Positions 7,795 to 60,004 of a stretch of 64,000 nt of DNA are shown here, piece after piece (position 1 is the stretch's first letter; each line of letters begins with the position of its first letter). Under the pieces are notes generated by a model. That model did not search any database, was not told the origin of the DNA, and saw only the letters and a program-made list of their open reading frames with translations. Source of the DNA: Escherichia phage ECO340P2; sequence record OP172792; one strand, written 5' to 3'. The position numbers and the translations under genes are program-made.

Positions 7795-8010
7795 TTATGA
7801 AATAATTGTCAAAGTAAAATCATAAGACTGATTTAATTTATATTGTACTTTATTGCCGTAGTAGTCACCTTTACGTAAAGATCCGCGAATACCTATCACA
7901 TCCTTTACATCTTTAAGACTTTTTACGCCTGTAATGTCTTTATTGAAATACTCGTCATCTGAAAATAAAACTTGACTTGCATTTTTTAACAGTGTGCGGA
8001 TATTAGCCAT
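7795..8010 (-). CDS. hypothetical small early protein
   Basis: track ORF trimmed to ATG 8010. Confidence 0.5.
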   Translation of the reverse strand: MANIRTLLKNASQVLFSDDEYFNKDITGVKSLKDVKDVIGIRGSLRKGDYYGNKVQYKLNQSYDFTLTIIS

Positions 8011-8031
8011 CGTGATAATCTCTCTTCTTGT

Positions 8032-8089
8032 TGGCGGCACCATTGCCGCCCTACGTAATACAGTTTACTCTTTTTCTTTCCAGTGTCAA
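8032..8089 (-). promoter_or_regulatory. early promoter (TTGACA-N16-TAAACT) + leader hairpin GGCGGCAccatTGCCGCC
   Basis: canonical copy. Confidence 0.65.
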
Positions 8090-8098
8090 CAATCTTTT

Positions 8099-8326
8099 TC
8101 AGATTATTTCATCCAGGCATAACAGGCGATCAACGTTGAGATCGGTTAGGCTGATGGTTGGCACCTGGTAGGATTCGATGTACTCAACACTAGCCCATTG
8201 CCCGAAATTAGCGACCGCCCAGCTATTCAAGGAAGATTGCAGATCATCCCCTTTCTTCTCGGTGATAACTGCTACTGTCTGGAAGTTGCCAACGGTGCCG
8301 GATACGCGAACAATAATGATAGCCAT
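8099..8326 (-). CDS. hypothetical small early protein
   Basis: ORF with AGAAGAGAGAAA RBS. Confidence 0.55.
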   Translation of the reverse strand: MAIIIVRVSGTVGNFQTVAVITEKKGDDLQSSLNSWAVANFGQWASVEYIESYQVPTISLTDLNVDRLLCLDEII

Positions 8327-20183: not shown

Positions 20184-20392
20184 GTGGATGGATTAAAGTA
20201 TCTGGTACCGAGGATGTTCCTATCGGAGAGTGGCTTGTAATCATGGCAAACGGCAAGAAGGGATTCTGTGAAGTTAACAAAACACGCAATGGCACGATAG
20301 CTGTTATCAATGGTCATTTTTATTTTGACTTGGCACCTGTGATCGCATATCATGCACTACCAACATATGAAGAGGAGATTAACAATGGCTAA
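20180..20392 (+). CDS. hypothetical protein
   Basis: ORF, translationally coupled. Confidence 0.5.
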   Translation: MSGWIKVSGTEDVPIGEWLVIMANGKKGFCEVNKTRNGTIAVINGHFYFDLAPVIAYHALPTYEEEINNG

Positions 20393-20708
20393 CAAAGGAC
20401 CACATGTATATACTGCACTGGTAAAGCACTTGAACAAAGAACGTAACAGGATCATTGCAGATTATCGTAAATTTAAACGTAGTAGTCTAAATCGTAAATA
20501 CATGCCACATGCAGCTTTTGACGCTACACGTGCAGTATTTCGTGCAAAGATTGCGGAAATGGATAATCTGCTTAAGCTTGCACGATTATCTATTCATGCA
20601 TCCAAAGTAACAGGAGTCACTCACTTCTTTGACTTCGATACTAAAGCACTATATGCACCAGAAGCAGGTGAACAATTGATTTATCTGCTTACCAAAAATA
20701 AGTGTTGA
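20385..20708 (+). CDS. hypothetical basic protein
   Basis: track ORF trimmed to ATG 20385 with GGAG RBS. Confidence 0.5.
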   Translation: MANKGPHVYTALVKHLNKERNRIIADYRKFKRSSLNRKYMPHAAFDATRAVFRAKIAEMDNLLKLARLSIHASKVTGVTHFFDFDTKALYAPEAGEQLIYLLTKNKC

Positions 20709-20733
20709 CTTTTTTCAAAAAATATGCTACCCT
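20705..20733 (+). promoter_or_regulatory. possible promoter (TTGACT; -10 ambiguous)
   Basis: TTGACT at 20705; weak -10. Confidence 0.3.
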
Positions 20734-20780
20734 AACCCCGAAGGGTCGAGCGATAGCGAGTATAGATTATGTAATAGATT

Positions 20781-20860
20781 AATCTCTATCGTTAGATGTT
20801 CGAAGAACAGAGATTTAAGTACTTGTTCTTATCGGTAGATGATCGTAAGATCAAGAACAA
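20781..20860 (+). promoter_or_regulatory. two tandem stem-loops with near-identical loops in 5' UTR
   Basis: AATCTCT...AGAGATT (20781-20815) and TTGTTCTTATC...GATcAAGAACAA (20823-20860); loops share ATCG(T/G)TAGATG(T/A)TCG(A/T)AAG. Confidence 0.5.
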
Positions 20861-20877
20861 TAATAGGAGAGTGTGTT

Positions 20878-21075
20878 ATGTTAGTCAGTGGGACACTACC
20901 TGATTCTAACGGTAATCAGATCACTATTGATTGGTTTCCTGGTACGGGTACACTAGATCTAACTGCTGAATGGTCTGGTGATATTTATGGAGAAGGTGTA
21001 CTATCATTGTCTACAGAACAAATGATCATCCTTCGTGACTTCTTAATTAGTTTAGATCTAGGAGAAAACAAATGA
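20878..21075 (+). CDS. hypothetical protein
   Basis: track ORF trimmed to ATG 20878 with AGGAGAG RBS. Confidence 0.5.
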   Translation: MLVSGTLPDSNGNQITIDWFPGTGTLDLTAEWSGDIYGEGVLSLSTEQMIILRDFLISLDLGENK

Positions 21076-21341
21076 GTAAAACTTCTGTCGAGTTTATCGA
21101 GAAATCCCCTATTCCAAAGCTATACCGTTTAGCTGAAATTGAACCTATGTCTGTTTTCTACTACTACATTGCAGAAGTAGATGAACAAGAACGGGAATAC
21201 TATTTGGCTACAGACACAGGTGCAGTGTGCTTAACAGGCTCTCGTGCAGGAGAATACATTGTAAACAGTCGTTTTAATGAAGCAGACTCTTGTTGGGCTA
21301 AGGTTGAAACTAAGATTGTCATCAACATCACCAATCATTAA
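21072..21341 (+). CDS. hypothetical protein
   Basis: ORF with GGAGAAAA RBS. Confidence 0.55.
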   Translation: MSKTSVEFIEKSPIPKLYRLAEIEPMSVFYYYIAEVDEQEREYYLATDTGAVCLTGSRAGEYIVNSRFNEADSCWAKVETKIVINITNH

Positions 21342-21363
21342 GACTAATCTGACAAAGAGTTAC

Positions 21364-21393
21364 TTGACATGTGCAAAGCTCTTTGTGTAGAAT
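21364..21393 (+). promoter_or_regulatory. promoter TTGACA-N18-TAGAAT
   Basis: hexamers read directly; -35 flanked by CAAAGAG/CTCTTTG inverted repeat. Confidence 0.55.
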
Positions 21394-21423
21394 AAAGATT
21401 CACTTACTAAGGAGATTTTATAA

Positions 21424-27866: not shown

Positions 27867-27891
27867 AAAGGCGCACTTTGCGCCTTTTTTG
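27867..27891 (+). terminator. intrinsic terminator GGCGCActtTGCGCC + TTTTTT
   Basis: GC stem followed by T6. Confidence 0.7.
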
Positions 27892-33528: not shown

Positions 33529-33587
33529 TTGACAAGCTTTTTAAAAAGAGTAAGATATATCACATGAAGCGGGGAATAGTTCCCCGC
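33529..33587 (+). promoter_or_regulatory. promoter TTGACA-N16-TAAGAT + leader hairpin GCGGGGAAtagTTCCCCGC (same module as early genes, plus strand)
   Basis: hexamers and hairpin read directly; 18 nt upstream of terC RBS. Confidence 0.6.
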
Positions 33588-34584: not shown

Positions 34585-34610
34585 GAGCCTCCTTCGGGAG
34601 GCTATTTTAT
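34585..34610 (+). terminator. intrinsic terminator AGCCTCCttcgGGAGGCT + T-run
   Basis: 7-bp GC stem, tetraloop, ATTTTAT. Confidence 0.65.
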
Positions 34611-55267: not shown

Positions 55268-57938
55268 ATTTATAACCCGAAGGAATATTATTATAATCAG
55301 AAAGTTTTGTGCAATACCTGAATAGGTAACTATTAGCTACTCCGCCTAATGTATTTGTTAATGTTGTTCCTGTTCCTGTAAGATTTGTGCATCCACTAAA
55401 GAAAGAAGATAATGCTCCACGTTTACCACAAACAGTTAACCCTGGGTTGTCATTAAAGATTTTATTAAAATCTGTAAGTGCTAAACAACCTTGGAATGTA
55501 GCTGTTAAAGAGGTCACTTTCGTTGGAATATTATCAAACATTCCTGCTGGAACTTCTGCAAGAGAGGTGCAATCTTTAAAGGTGTAAGAATATCTTGTAA
55601 CTTTTGATAGATTCTTAAATAAATCTGAAGGAATAGATGTTAAAGATGTACAACCTTCAAACGTGCTTGACATTGTTGTCATTGAAGGAAATAAAGCATC
55701 ACTGAATAATCCTTCAGGGATAGCTGTCAAACTTGTGCAGCCAGAGAAGATACCGCTTATAGATGTTCCGGTGTAAGATGTGTTACTAAAACAATCAGAA
55801 GTTATTCGTCTTAAGTTAGCACAACCTTTTAAGAATTGTGAGGCTGGGCTTGTAGAATAACCAATTCTGTTGCCGCCCCATAATTCTAAAAGATTTGGAT
55901 TTGCTTCCATAGACACATCAACACTATTCACTACTGAAGCACTTGCAAATTCAATAGCCAGTCTATATTCTCCTGCTGGATAACTATCCACTGTAGAGAA
56001 AGCTTTATTTCTAAATATTACTTTATTTGAAGGTATTACAACGTCATCCACTTTAACTACAAAGTTAGCTGGTGTGACAGTACCCGATAAAATTGGGAAC
56101 GTAATTGCCCCATCTGCCGAGTGGTTGAAATATCCGTTTAGAACCGTTAAACTACTACTCGGAGATGGAGCTAACTCCTTTCCCGCAACAGCATTCACCG
56201 TTAAATAAGAACTATCGGAAGCGGTAACAACACCTTGATACGTAGCTGTGCAACCAATCCTACAACCACCATCACCAACACCAGTTATTACACCAGTTGT
56301 AGGATCTACTGTAGCAACACTAGAATCTGTAGTTGTATATTCAACAACCATGCCAGGTAAGCTTGCTGCCCCTGTTGGCGTTATTTCTGCTACCATTGTT
56401 TGTGTTGTTCCTACATCCATCGCAGATAAGCTAGGGGTGTAAACACTCAATGTTGAAGCATATCCTCCAGAGGTATCTGATAAAGTTGTTCCTTCAGCGT
56501 TTAAGGCTGTCATACCTGCATCAAAACCACCTTCTGCATGGAAAGTCATTAAACCAGTAGATGATATTGTCATGTTTGCAGGGGCAGAAGAAGTGTATTT
56601 AATATTGAAAAGTTTACCTCCTTCTGGGCTAACAGAATGTGTCAACTGTTTAGTTCCACCTACAATACAAACTCCTAAAGAATCTGTAGTTAAGCTAGTT
56701 GCCAGCACATCTCCCGTAATCACAGAGCTTGCTATCGGTGTGAATTTATTATAATTTAGACCACTGTTGAACAGATACGAGGCTTTCCCATCTTTCCAAA
56801 TACCGGAATAATACATATCCCCGTTATAAACGAAAAAGGTTCCTTGATAACCTAATTGGTTAGTAATATCCATATTCAGCGTATGAACGCTTGTGAGCTT
56901 GTTTATATCCCAAGAACCCACTCCTTCAGGTTTAACTGGTTTTCCCACTTGGAGTGGATCTCCGCTCGCAGAATCATACCCCAAACCTAAGTTTGCAGTG
57001 TAGTTCTTACCAATAGCCCACAAGGAATTGTTGATCCCAACGAAAAAAGAGTGGCGGCTTGGTGGAAATTTCCATGTTGAGAAACCTGCTGCAAAGGTAT
57101 CCAGTTTAGTGTAGGTTGTTTCTGTATTAGACCTGACATATAAGTAGTTTACCGTGCCCGTACCACCAGAGGTGTCTCCTACAACTATTGTCTGGGAAAC
57201 TGTATTGATGTAATCTTTGACATACACTGTTTCAGTAGTGGATATCGTGGCATTGACAAAAGCGGTTGTTGTGTTATTATTACCTGCTAAACCTTTACTA
57301 GCTCCACAAACACGCAAGGTTCCCACATTGTTGACATAAGAGCATTGGTTGTAACCTGCATCAAAAGCAACTGCTGAACTTGTTATCTGACGAGGAGTAG
57401 AAACTTCGTTAGTAGTGCTTGCACCTAAACTACCTACTGTGTTTTGACCCGATCCATAAAGAACACCGCTATTCATTAACCAGAGAGTATTGTTATACCC
57501 TCCTTTAACCTCTTTAAGATTGGCTAAAGAAATAGTCCCTGTTATTACAGATGGAAAGCTGGTCCAAGTAGTTACACATGCATCCGTACCACCTGCTGCT
57601 ATAGATCCTACCAACCCTGCTGTCAATCCTGAATATTGCCATCCCCCACTGTTAGTTTTAATAACAAAACAACGATCTGCGGTAAACACATCCGCTACTA
57701 CAGTAGAAGCTAAGTGGAAATTATTGAATCGTGCACTACGAGTTCCATCTGCAATCTCACCAAAGAGGTTTGCGCCTTGAGTAAACAATCTACCATCATT
57801 AAGCAAAATTGCTAAACTGTTGTTAGAATTACCAGCGTTATCTGGGTAATCTAAAGTGATTACTTTTTTAACAATACCTGCTGGCAGAGGAACGACACCA
57901 GTGCTGGTCATAATAGTAAATATTGGAATTGGAAACAT
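55266..57938 (-). CDS. tail fibre / receptor-binding protein with C-terminal BspA-type leucine-rich repeats
   Basis: repeats F.GCTSLT.IP..LF near C-terminus; Gly/Thr/Ser-rich body. Confidence 0.5.
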   Translation of the reverse strand: MFPIPIFTIMTSTGVVPLPAGIVKKVITLDYPDNAGNSNNSLAILLNDGRLFTQGANLFGEIADGTRSARFNNFHLASTVVADVFTADRCFVIKTNSGGWQYSGLTAGLVGSIAAGGTDACVTTWTSFPSVITGTISLANLKEVKGGYNNTLWLMNSGVLYGSGQNTVGSLGASTTNEVSTPRQITSSAVAFDAGYNQCSYVNNVGTLRVCGASKGLAGNNNTTTAFVNATISTTETVYVKDYINTVSQTIVVGDTSGGTGTVNYLYVRSNTETTYTKLDTFAAGFSTWKFPPSRHSFFVGINNSLWAIGKNYTANLGLGYDSASGDPLQVGKPVKPEGVGSWDINKLTSVHTLNMDITNQLGYQGTFFVYNGDMYYSGIWKDGKASYLFNSGLNYNKFTPIASSVITGDVLATSLTTDSLGVCIVGGTKQLTHSVSPEGGKLFNIKYTSSAPANMTISSTGLMTFHAEGGFDAGMTALNAEGTTLSDTSGGYASTLSVYTPSLSAMDVGTTQTMVAEITPTGAASLPGMVVEYTTTDSSVATVDPTTGVITGVGDGGCRIGCTATYQGVVTASDSSYLTVNAVAGKELAPSPSSSLTVLNGYFNHSADGAITFPILSGTVTPANFVVKVDDVVIPSNKVIFRNKAFSTVDSYPAGEYRLAIEFASASVVNSVDVSMEANPNLLELWGGNRIGYSTSPASQFLKGCANLRRITSDCFSNTSYTGTSISGIFSGCTSLTAIPEGLFSDALFPSMTTMSSTFEGCTSLTSIPSDLFKNLSKVTRYSYTFKDCTSLAEVPAGMFDNIPTKVTSLTATFQGCLALTDFNKIFNDNPGLTVCGKRGALSSFFSGCTNLTGTGTTLTNTLGGVANSYLFRYCTKLSDYNNIPSGYK

Positions 57939-57949
57939 TTAAACCCTCC

Positions 57950-57975
57950 ATAAAAAGAAAGCCCCTTTCGGGGCT
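57950..57975 (-). terminator. intrinsic terminator GCCCCgaaaGGGGC + TTTCTTTTT
   Basis: GC stem plus T-run on minus strand. Confidence 0.7.
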
Positions 57976-57979
57976 TCTG

Positions 57980-60004
57980 TTATCGTGTTACAACAACCAT
58001 GTCCACGACATTACCCACACCAGGATACGTTAATTGCAAAATTGTTACTGCGTTAGCAGTAGTTGCTATTTCTGTATCATTCAGTGCTCCATAAGACGCA
58101 TCTAGTGTAACCGTGTGTCCCGTTGTATCTTGAATCAAATAAATCATTGCTGAAAACGCTTTAGGCTTTGTAGAGCCAGTGACACCAGGCCATGCTCCAA
58201 CTGTCAGAGCGTCAGTTACTGTAACAACATACATATTGGAAGTTCCAGAAGGAGTCCAAGATGCTCCAGAGTTGGCAGTAGTTGTTTCAAGTTCCATGAA
58301 ACCTGCTGTAACTTTAGTTGGTGTTATAGCTTCTGTAGGATCTGATCCTGATATTTCGATCCAGTTTCCATCAGAACGACCATACGTCAAGCCATCTTGA
58401 GGGGCTTCTGGTATACTAGGAAGAGTGCCTATAAGTATCCACGTAGAAGAATCTGTTTTCTTAAACACTGCTCCAGTGTTAGTATTGAAGGCGTAATCAT
58501 TGATAACACCGTCTCCTGCGACTGGATTAGTTGTTGCTACAAACCACTGTGCGCCGTCCTTACCGTTGGTCCCATCAGTACCATTGGTTCCGTTTGTTCC
58601 AGGATCACCCTTATCTCCTTTATCCCCTTTTTCACCTTTGTCACCTTTAATACTTCCCATGTCAACAAAAGATGCGGAATTAGTGTCTTGATCGTAGGTA
58701 TAGATGTAAAGATTACTAGTGTCTTCAGTTAAATAGGCATCACCATAGTTATTATAAACAGGGAGAGCTTCACTGTTCGGAACATGACCTTTAGCTGTAA
58801 TTGATGTTCCTCCAAGACTGCCAACATTCATCCATTCCGTAGCATCTTGAATCCAAACATACAAATCATTATTAATTTTATATGCATCACCTACTTCTCC
58901 AGTAGGAGGAAGTTCAGCTTCACTGTTCAGAACCCCGATAATCTCTAAGCCTGATCCTGTTGCACCCACTGGTCCTTGTGGACCTAGTTCACCTTGTGGA
59001 CCTCGCTCTCCTTGATCACCCTTGTCTCCTTTTGGACCTTTAAGTGAGGCAATAAAATCTACTTCTGTCCCTTCATTACCAGCATCCAGCCAACTTTGAT
59101 ATGCAGATTTCCCTTCATCTCCATCTGTTCCATCAAGACCGTCTTTACCTGCCTCACCTTGTGGACCTTGAGGACCAACAATATTACCCATGTTGACCCA
59201 AGCTGTCCCATTAGAGACATAAAGATTACCATTGATAGAATAAGCTTGGCTTACGTTTTCAGAGTTAGGTTGTGGTAAGTTACTTGTAGAAGGCAAATCC
59301 CCACGATAATCAAAACCGTTGGCGTTAACACCAGGTGCTCCCTGTGGCCCTGTAGGACCAACATCACCTTTATCACCTTTTATAGAGGTAAGAAAATCAT
59401 AAACAGATCCTGTATTACCATCTGCCAACCATACCTCGTAAGCTGATTTACCTTCTGGCCCAAGAGAAGAAATAAGTTTCCAAACAGAACCATCCCAAGC
59501 GTAGATTACATCACCTACGATATAACCATCCCCTGCAACGTTACCTGTGGATGGTAGTTCACTAGTGCTTGCTAATGATCCTTTAATATTAAGTTGAGCA
59601 CCAGTATCCCCTTTCAAAGAAGCAAGCCATTGTGCTTCTGTTCCAACAAAACCATTATCAAGTGCGATCTGATAAGCCGATTTACCAGCTTCAGGTATTG
59701 TTTCCGACAGATCATCAATTTGTTGCTGCATTGCCGTAAACTTGGCATTGATAATTGCTATATCATCAGCGGTCCCAACACTTTGCCATGCAAGGGAAGA
59801 AATACCACCTGTGGTGGCTGGCGTAGAGTTTGCTGGAACTACTTTAGGAAAAGTTCCTTTCCATTGGTAATAATTCCCTTCTGCTGCTAACAGCAAAACT
59901 TCACGGGAATTACGTAATGTAAAACCTGCCTCAAAGCTGCGACGTTTTCGATAAGTAGCTTCTACCAGATCGGCTATCGCACTATTAGGTCTTGTTAAAT
60001 TCAT
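57980..60004 (-). CDS. collagen-like tail fibre protein
   Basis: multiple G-X-Y runs (GDKGDQGERGPQGELGPQGPVGATG) and repeated KSAY(E/Q)..WL..G modules. Confidence 0.6.
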   Translation of the reverse strand: MNLTRPNSAIADLVEATYRKRRSFEAGFTLRNSREVLLLAAEGNYYQWKGTFPKVVPANSTPATTGGISSLAWQSVGTADDIAIINAKFTAMQQQIDDLSETIPEAGKSAYQIALDNGFVGTEAQWLASLKGDTGAQLNIKGSLASTSELPSTGNVAGDGYIVGDVIYAWDGSVWKLISSLGPEGKSAYEVWLADGNTGSVYDFLTSIKGDKGDVGPTGPQGAPGVNANGFDYRGDLPSTSNLPQPNSENVSQAYSINGNLYVSNGTAWVNMGNIVGPQGPQGEAGKDGLDGTDGDEGKSAYQSWLDAGNEGTEVDFIASLKGPKGDKGDQGERGPQGELGPQGPVGATGSGLEIIGVLNSEAELPPTGEVGDAYKINNDLYVWIQDATEWMNVGSLGGTSITAKGHVPNSEALPVYNNYGDAYLTEDTSNLYIYTYDQDTNSASFVDMGSIKGDKGEKGDKGDKGDPGTNGTNGTDGTNGKDGAQWFVATTNPVAGDGVINDYAFNTNTGAVFKKTDSSTWILIGTLPSIPEAPQDGLTYGRSDGNWIEISGSDPTEAITPTKVTAGFMELETTTANSGASWTPSGTSNMYVVTVTDALTVGAWPGVTGSTKPKAFSAMIYLIQDTTGHTVTLDASYGALNDTEIATTANAVTILQLTYPGVGNVVDMVVVTR

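Follow-up and report, generated by a model that had tools for sequence, protein, structure and literature searches.

Two tandem stem-loops, which we designated HP1 (positions 20781 to 20815) and HP2 (positions 20823 to 20860), lie in the leader of a small gene in the 64,000-nucleotide stretch of Escherichia phage ECO340P2 analyzed here (record OP172792; for simplicity this stretch is referred to as the window). An earlier note had placed two stem-loops at this site, and both were apparent on inspection of the sequence and in a search for repeats and inverted pairs. They appear to be paralogous copies of an RNA module of about 36 nt in an untranslated leader. It is possible, although we put this forward tentatively, that HP1 and HP2 act in cis within a regulatory leader, as two copies of an RNA site at which a sequence-specific factor docks. 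The conservation of their pairing, the promoter and box that precede them, and the recurrence of one of their mini-hairpins in other leaders are observations; activity of the promoter, action as RNA rather than DNA, and the binding of a factor are inferred.

The anatomy of the tandem pair is nonrandom. Tandem hairpins with interiors matching at 13 or more of 16 positions were encountered at a single place in the window, and none of 60 dinucleotide shuffles contained such a pair. The 19-nt motif pattern matched only the HP1 and HP2 sites when both strands of the 64 kb were searched, and a covariance model of the module recovered only these two copies in the window and likewise two in the complete 147.7-kb genome of phage phAPEC8. 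Single hairpins with 7-bp stems were unremarkable (68 in the window versus 63.5 in dinucleotide shuffles).

Judged by sequence identity, the window is that of a Phapecoctavirus (phAPEC8-like, subfamily Stephanstirmvirinae). Positions 20300 to 21400 were 95 to 99% identical to 67 phage records, almost all of them Escherichia phages of this genus, and positions 20700 to 20880 are the reverse complement of phAPEC8 positions 134375 to 134555, between genes 237 and 236. The genes near the leader are all small, are encoded on the plus strand, and have no functional assignment; the neighboring proteins had neither Pfam matches nor functional PHROG assignments. The leader occupies an intergenic gap of 169 nt, from the upstream stop codon (TGA, 20706 to 20708) to the ATG at 20878, and is in the sense orientation relative to both flanking genes. 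The list of open reading frames included no minus-strand frame of at least 30 amino acids overlapping the module site. The downstream gene (20878 to 21075, plus strand; phrog_25113) encodes 65 amino acids and has a good Shine-Dalgarno sequence, AGGAGAG at 20865 to 20871 (GGAG at 20866 to 20869), before its start codon (20878 to 20880). HP2 ends about 5 to 6 nt upstream of this ribosome-binding site.

The upstream gene (20385 to 20708, plus strand; phrog_14778) encodes a basic protein of 107 amino acids with the motif DxRxFKRxxxNR, which was found in Stephanstirmvirinae only. A homologue of this gene lies directly 5' of the promoter cassette described below in most of the genomes examined, the exception being Klebsiella phage 05F01. 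On the basis of this synteny across genera, it is possible to speculate that the upstream protein is a candidate partner of the modules. An AlphaFold model of the protein (pLDDT 76) is a long helical hairpin with a small beta element and had no significant structural match, the best PDB entry being DksA2 (E = 1.2). The protein was rejected as a recognizable nucleic acid binder, given the helical-hairpin model and the lack of significance of the match to DksA2, a protein of the RNA polymerase secondary-channel type.

The leader would be transcribed from a special sigma-70-type promoter cassette, which the earlier note had missed and which explains the context of the modules. The putative promoter (20705 to 20733, plus strand) consists of a -35 element, TTGACT (20705 to 20710), which overlaps the stop codon of the upstream gene, a 17-nt spacer, and an extended -10 element, TGcTACCCT (20725 to 20733). 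It is unannotated, and with only 3 of 6 consensus positions matched by TACCCT it was passed over in a consensus scan. If the promoter fires, transcription would be expected to start near G20740. Between the -10 element and the box lies a short palindrome, ACCCCGAAGGGT (20735 to 20746), whose sequence changes among relatives, often remaining palindromic, and which the terminator scan scored as terminator-like on the minus strand. With a start near 20740, only half of this palindrome would be transcribed. The conserved box, CGAGCGATAGCGAG (20747 to 20760, plus strand; consensus CGAGCG-N2-3-GCGAG), would occupy about +8 to +21 of the transcript and was found in every member of the cassette family, 12 to 16 nt after TACCCT. 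The modules would begin about 40 nt into the leader transcript. The only segment common to all members of the family is the 65 nt from the -35 element through the box.

The promoter and box are present in three copies per phage genome, only one of which carries the modules. In phAPEC8 (JX561091), a cassette at 20,447 on the minus strand separates genes 58 and 60 and is oriented opposite to the two of them. Downstream of this cassette, two hairpins could be drawn, GUUUCAU..AUGAAAC, tipped by GAUA, and GGUAGAUA..UAUCUACC (positions 20,300 to 20,470; our locus L006), and no plausible open reading frame could be read in the sequence. The product is a candidate noncoding RNA, and gene 59 (39 amino acids, on the opposite strand) is probably spurious. 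A further cassette, at 57,882 on the plus strand, was located in a divergent region that precedes gene 140 and the tRNA cluster. This copy leads into GTACT/AGTAC repeats and a long AT-rich inverted repeat (57,860 to 58,160; positions 7860 to 8160 of locus L007), an arrangement that, as read from the sequence, looks like a transcription-activated replication origin.

The cassette that precedes the modules would serve a run of phage genes extending at least to a terminator-like site near 27,870. About 7 kb downstream, at 27867 to 27887, lies a hairpin, AAAGGCGCACTTTGCGCCTTT, that is flanked on each side by T runs and is strongly terminator-like in both directions. This hairpin is likely to be the end of the transcription unit that would start at the cassette.

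Both modules are encoded on the plus strand and have the same plan. In HP1, the outer stem P1 pairs AATCTCT (20781 to 20787) with AGAGATT (20809 to 20815), enclosing two mini-hairpins, P2 (AUC-GUUA-GAU, 20788 to 20797) and P3 (GUUC-GAA-GAAC, 20798 to 20808). In HP2, TTGTTCTT (20823 to 20830) pairs with AAGAACAA (20853 to 20860) around P2 (AUC-GGUA-GAU, 20831 to 20840) and P3 (GAUC-GUAA-GAUC, 20841 to 20852). A 7-nt linker, TAAGTAC (20816 to 20822), separates the modules; it differs in phage KKP 3954 (C20822T) and in phage phiWec181. The earlier note held that the stems differ while the loops are conserved. This description was accurate in that the outer stems (7 to 8 bp) are unrelated to each other and the interiors, TATCG(T/G)TAGATG(T/A)TCG with a start-to-start distance of 43 nt, are near-identical; it has to be amended in that the conserved part is base-paired rather than an open loop. 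Because each "loop" contains two mini-hairpins, each module is a small three-way junction, in which the outer helix would close two stacked mini-hairpins, the first with the general form (U)AUC-GNYA-GAU(G). The stem of the first mini-hairpin, AUC-GNYA-GAU, is invariant between the two modules. The T/A difference in the motif belongs to a base pair that is compensated on its other side, U-A in HP1 and A-U in HP2. The P3 mini-hairpin of HP2 is a further ATCGNNAGAT unit. Upstream of the modules, a direct repeat, ATAGATTA (20762 to 20769 and 20774 to 20781, plus strand), supplies two of the four copies of TAGAT in the leader; one copy of this repeat is lost in phAPEC8 (G20777A). The four TAGAT copies on the plus strand, with none on the minus strand, compare with an expectation of 0.14; this comparison was made post hoc.

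Both modules have low thermodynamic stability. The minimum free energy structure of HP1 was the three-way junction of outer stem, AUC-GUUA-GAU, and GUUC-GAA-GAAC (-6.3 kcal/mol, z = -0.8). HP2 can adopt the same branched shape, but a competing single-hairpin register is more stable (-10.6 kcal/mol) and was preferred by RNAalifold. The leader as a whole folded slightly better than its shuffles (z = -1.55).

Natural variation is consistent with selection on the pairing. All 64 phAPEC8-type records contain the motif, as does the more distant phiWec181 lineage, and Klebsiella phages have one copy of it; thus, the absence from related genomes that would have counted against the earlier note was not observed. 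Within the phAPEC8-type phages, T20793C (phage 536P1) falls in the HP1 tetraloop, and both C20808T in HP1 (phage SKA64) and C20844T in HP2 (KKP 3954) convert a G-C pair to G.U on the plus strand, in contrast to the minus strand, where they would produce A.C mismatches. Two pairs of the HP1 outer stem are altered on both sides in phiWec181 with pairing retained (A-U to G-C and C-G to U-A), as RNAalifold recovered independently; this lineage also has an inserted U that extends the inner stem and GUUA in place of the GGUA loop of HP2. When seven distinct module variants were aligned, 99% of the cells could pair, versus 31 to 50% with the 3' partners slid by one to three columns, and both sides had changed at six pairs; the alignment was registered by hand to the model, which biases these counts toward it, and the underlying variation is shallow, comprising two lineages and four single-nucleotide variants. 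P2 had zero covariation among the variants, so its pairing is deduced from folding and from the Klebsiella phage version. The stem UAUC/GAU(R) is invariant across lineages, and the loop is GUUA, GGUA, GUCA, or GUA and the outer stems vary, a pattern that fits a sequence-specific site presented twice, as the earlier note had proposed. The preservation of base pairing by natural variants suggests that the structure is selected and that the leader probably contains a real regulatory RNA element.

The leader is more similar between the window and phiWec181 than its surroundings are. The modules are 90% identical over 82 nt, versus 41% identity for the upstream protein and an unrelated first downstream gene, which indicates either an island of conservation or a recent exchange. 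This contrast exists only in the comparison with phiWec181; among the phAPEC8-type phages the genes just upstream are as conserved as the leader, which has no extra conservation there.

The same variants bear on whether the sites might instead act as DNA, either as operators or iterons at which a DNA-binding protein would block or tune the transcription driven by the cassette or as marks of a replication origin, a reading that we consider doubtful. It would be consistent with the ATCGNNAGAT-like units at 20788, 20799 (degenerate), 20831, and 20842, which are spaced at 11, 32, and 11 bp and accompanied by TGTTC/GAACA inverted repeats, with the operator-like combination of invariant half-sites and a variable center, and with the origin-like GTACT repeats and AT-rich palindrome that follow the 57,882 cassette of phAPEC8. 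However, the spacer is 3 or 4 nt depending on the lineage, the outer stems covary, for which duplex DNA has no need, and both the substitutions that form G.U pairs and the TAGAT bias are strand specific. Furthermore, the search against Pfam found no DNA-binding domain in the neighboring genes. A constant stem with a 3- or 4-nt loop, as deduced from these sequences, fits an RNA hairpin read by sequence better than it fits a DNA operator with twofold symmetry. The modules would act in cis as RNA, not as DNA.

The genes that follow the leader are not constant. At the place of the gene at 20878, an unrelated gene is present in phiWec181, in phi92, in the Klebsiella phages, and in Citrobacter phage Tr1. 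In phage vB_Ec-G1 (locus L534, about positions 775 to 850), the homologue of the gene at 20878 to 21075 is missing; the leader is intact up to the Shine-Dalgarno sequence, and divergence begins at the start codon. The Shine-Dalgarno sequence of the window was unpaired with the modules in predicted folds of the leader. The suggestion in the earlier note of a translational operator was not supported for the gene at 20878, because the Shine-Dalgarno sequence is not occluded and because a leader that outlives the replacement or loss of its first gene is unlikely to be an operator dedicated to that gene. A protein bound at HP2 may nevertheless control the gene at 20878 sterically. The other proposals of that note, a target for antitermination and a small riboregulator, may also apply.

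A leader that persists while the next gene differs among lineages, or is absent as in vB_Ec-G1, might also be a passive structural one, a 5' stabilizer, an insulator of the ribosome-binding site, or a block for recombination that binds no ligand. PeSLs, the promoter-early stem-loops of T4-type phages, likewise mark junctions of gene exchange (PMC2839356, PMC4122927). In further agreement with a passive role, about 19 other cassettes of promoter and 5' hairpin are present in the same phage, some hairpin lies between the box and the ribosome-binding site in every genus, with differing sequences, and the low folding energy of the modules suggests nothing elaborate. We nonetheless regard a passive leader as rather unlikely. 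Covariation, as seen in the outer stems, would be expected of a helix with a purely structural role, but UAUC/GAU is invariant across both lineages and paralogues, and a passive role leaves the duplication and the TAGAT enrichment unexplained. In addition, the module is not repeated around the genome and is not terminator-like, unlike PeSLs.

The resemblance to PeSLs is nevertheless considerable. The stem-loops of PeSLs are rich in G+C, are mostly located within the promoter or before it, function as terminators, and number about 50 per genome (PMC2839356, PMC4122927). The leader shares with them the intergenic combination of a sigma-70-like promoter (here putative) and a stem-loop, with the Shine-Dalgarno sequence of the following gene at its 3' end, the position at junctions of gene replacement or loss between relatives, and the location in a region of small genes without assigned function. 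It lacks the many near-identical terminating copies per genome, the modules being confined to a single locus and not terminator-like. The modules also differ in that they are A+U-rich, lie downstream of the predicted start, and contain an invariant internal hairpin, and the Stephanstirmvirinae are not T4-like. The approximately 19 other cassettes of the window match the many-copies feature of PeSLs better than the modules do.

Termination at the modules themselves was rejected. There is no plus-strand terminator-like site between 20700 and 20880, the modules are weak (-6.3 and -10.6 kcal/mol), and neither HP1 nor HP2 has a U tract, HP2 being followed by UAAUAAUAGG. In the absence of a U tract, the "terminator" label attached to HP2 in phage ASO2A, which derives from a WebGeSTer prediction only, is unfounded.

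The Klebsiella phage homologue, unlike HP1 and HP2, does resemble an intrinsic terminator. After the box, the Klebsiella phages have a 46-nt hairpin (-29.6 kcal/mol, z = -8.9) followed by UUUUCUUUU. In Klebsiella phage KP2025 (locus L003, 1560 to 1625; also loci L535, L536, L537, and L155), this hairpin and U tract end the leader 12 nt before the next start codon. The terminator scan did not list the hairpin, perhaps because of its internal loop. The Klebsiella phage cassette should yield an RNA of about 95 nt unless the terminator is read through. The tip of the hairpin is CUAUC-GUUA-GAUAG, a single copy of the first mini-hairpin at the same relative place in the leader; an IMG/VR contig (L155) has a GUCA loop in a tip of the Klebsiella type.

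A strong hairpin and U tract about 95 nt from a putative start is the classic shape of a small RNA gene, and the cassette might accordingly produce a trans-acting small RNA with the box as its seed and the hairpins as its body or interaction surface, the downstream genes being read by leakage. The box is the most conserved part and lies at the 5' end, and the minus-strand phAPEC8 cassette at 20,447, antisense to its neighbors and with no plausible open reading frame after it, points in the same direction. This is improbable for the modules, however, since HP2 lacks a U tract, no plus-strand terminator-like site is present here, and a ribosome-binding site and gene follow about 5 to 6 nt past HP2. 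A variable length at the center of the box would be awkward for seed pairing, and no box-complementary target was found in phAPEC8 beyond chance expectation. A search for trans targets of the box was for the latter reason considered negative.

Known leader elements were also compared with the modules. Rfam (4,227 models at the gathering threshold) gave no matches in the window; at permissive settings, the best matches between 20650 and 20950 were unrelated eukaryotic RNAs with E values above 1 and about 15 bits, and at the sister loci only tRNAs were found. The guanidine-II riboswitch (mini-ykkC) resembles the modules in having two small tandem hairpins before a ribosome-binding site, with differing stems and conserved tips. 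It was rejected: there was no Rfam match, and the tips here are GUUA/GGUA and GAA/GUAA rather than ACGR. The ACGR tetraloops of guanidine-II pair mutually, in contrast to the branched architecture of the modules.

The nut sites of phage lambda are similar in that a linear conserved box is followed by one or more hairpins in a promoter-proximal phage leader, with more than one copy per genome. Lambda boxA is CGCUCUUA, and the box here, CGAGCGAUAGCGAG, is not a boxA. BoxB has a GNRA-like pentaloop, unlike the GNYA, GAA, and GUAA tips of the modules, and no N-like protein was found among the neighbors, which lack Pfam matches. The nut identity was therefore rejected.

With regard to antitermination, another possibility raised in the earlier note, the modules were compared with the put element of phage HK022, a double hairpin of about 65 nt after both early promoters that makes the RNA polymerase transcribing it read through terminators via the beta-prime zinc-binding domain (PMC8632103). 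Both elements are of phage origin and promoter-proximal, with two adjacent hairpins, and the modules would, like put, act in cis; the likeness is one of shape only. It is conceivable that the nascent double hairpin, about 80 nt here versus about 65 nt for put (PMC8632103), binds its own polymerase and confers resistance to downstream terminators, and plus-strand terminator-like sites are available downstream at 27867 to 27887 and 34586 to 34603. We consider such a mechanism very improbable. The modules have no sequence or Rfam similarity to a known element, their stems are short and weak, and the sister genera have other hairpins. Furthermore, put follows both early promoters, but the modules, which have no detectable sequence relation to it, follow one of three cassette copies only.

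Several other identities were tried and rejected. Attenuation through a leader peptide was rejected because the 35-amino-acid open reading frame that starts at 20796, inside HP1, has no Shine-Dalgarno sequence and its ATG is broken by the T insertion of phiWec181. A switch between the box and HP1 (CGAUAG with CUAUCG), seen in the leader fold, requires a complementarity that is absent in phiWec181 and the Klebsiella phages. A kissing interaction of the motif with a hairpin loop at 20905 to 20914 lies within the downstream gene, which is not conserved. The box matches the RfaH ops consensus at 9 of 12 positions, but its center varies among the other members of the family. Identities as a tRNA-like structure, a ribozyme, a CRISPR-repeat-like element, or a type III antitoxin were dropped on inspection of the sequence because the defining motifs are missing.

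The cassette extends to sister genera. It was found after homologues of the upstream gene in phi92, in Klebsiella phages KP2025, KP13-26, phi1_175008, and FKP3, and in Citrobacter phage Tr1. What follows the box differs: two modules in Phapecoctavirus, a single UGUUCCUG/CAGGAACA hairpin in phi92, the terminator-like hairpin in the Klebsiella phages, and a related hairpin without a U tract in Tr1. The different hairpins of phi92 and Tr1 indicate that the motif is not essential to the cassette.

In a scan of one genome per bacterial species, the promoter and box were also found in Citrobacter sp. OP27, Scandinavium, and Buttiauxella. All three bacterial cassettes follow the end of an open reading frame with similar C-terminal residues (..FLW), and the RNA after the bacterial box has a hairpin in common with the second phage cassette. 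In Citrobacter sp. OP27 (CP191518; locus L547, 3,300 to 5,332), the cassette directly follows a gene for a tyrosine integrase of 392 amino acids and precedes a noncoding stretch of about 800 nt, after which comes an island with endonuclease VII-like and primase-like genes. These findings suggest a regulatory cassette common to satellite-like islands and these phages, and the OP27 island may itself be a phage satellite under the same regulation as Stephanstirmvirinae. A search of complete E. coli genomes returned no match to the island leader. In another bacterial contig (L548), the mini-hairpin CUAUC-GUA-GAUAG occurs about 75 nt after the contig's own box. At loci L546 and L563, the cassette follows an open reading frame whose C-terminal residues are similar to those of the OP27 integrase, and the promoter and box are present at locus L560 as well.

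Our preferred reading, a duplicated docking site in RNA, would work as follows. A factor, most likely a protein encoded by the phage or by its host, would dock at the modules and decide the fate of the leader transcript, through read-through, stability, or access to the nearby ribosome-binding site. A bolder extension, which we regard as a long shot, is that a phage-made factor acting on the 65-nt cassette and the UAUCG..AGAU hairpins operates a switch common to virulent Stephanstirmvirinae and integrase-bearing islands, through which the islands would sense infection; the tandem modules would then be the RNA docking site of the phAPEC8 type. The proposed sharing of a cassette between island and phage can be likened to satellite P4, which shares late-promoter control with its helper phage P2.

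The modules are confined to a few related phages and are of a kind, the structured regulatory leader cassettes of phages, that is already known; the family of promoter and box is a more intriguing lead than the modules. Although members of the phAPEC8/phi92 group are widely isolated for therapy against E. coli and Klebsiella, the regulation of their genes is almost unstudied. The promoter and leader were not correctly annotated in any record examined. A module behind a promoter class with three members per genome provides a handle on the timing of middle or replication genes, and its presence beside integrases in islands of bacterial genomes is a hint that these phages and resident mobile elements communicate. 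Should a specific protein bind the module, the two would form a new pair of small RNA and protein. As a structural leader and nothing more, the module would be ordinary, yet it would still deserve correct annotation rather than that of a terminator.

Broad pattern scans of viral and metagenome contigs returned mostly chance matches and recovered only a handful of true relatives. One marine metagenome contig (Ga0224906_1018822, locus L414, about positions 745 to 830), which is otherwise unrelated, contains TTGACA..ATGCTACCCT followed by CGAGCGGTTAGCGAG, the latter forming part of a hairpin loop closed by a perfect 8-bp stem, TGTTCATT/AATGAACA. It is possible that the cassette reaches beyond enterobacterial phages.

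The approximately 19 other promoters of the window, between 2267 and 11381 on the minus strand and at 33529 on the plus strand, are near-consensus sigma-70 promoters (TTGACA-16/17-TAnnnT). No more than about 10 nt past each promoter comes a G+C-rich hairpin whose loop is conserved, for example, GGGCGGCAAUGGUGCCGCC, GCGGGAAUAGUUCCCGC, or GGGGCGACAAGCGCCCC, and then a ribosome-binding site. These units are probably the repeats annotated as "PHIRE" in phAPEC8, and by analogy they resemble the PeSL cassettes of T4-type phages.
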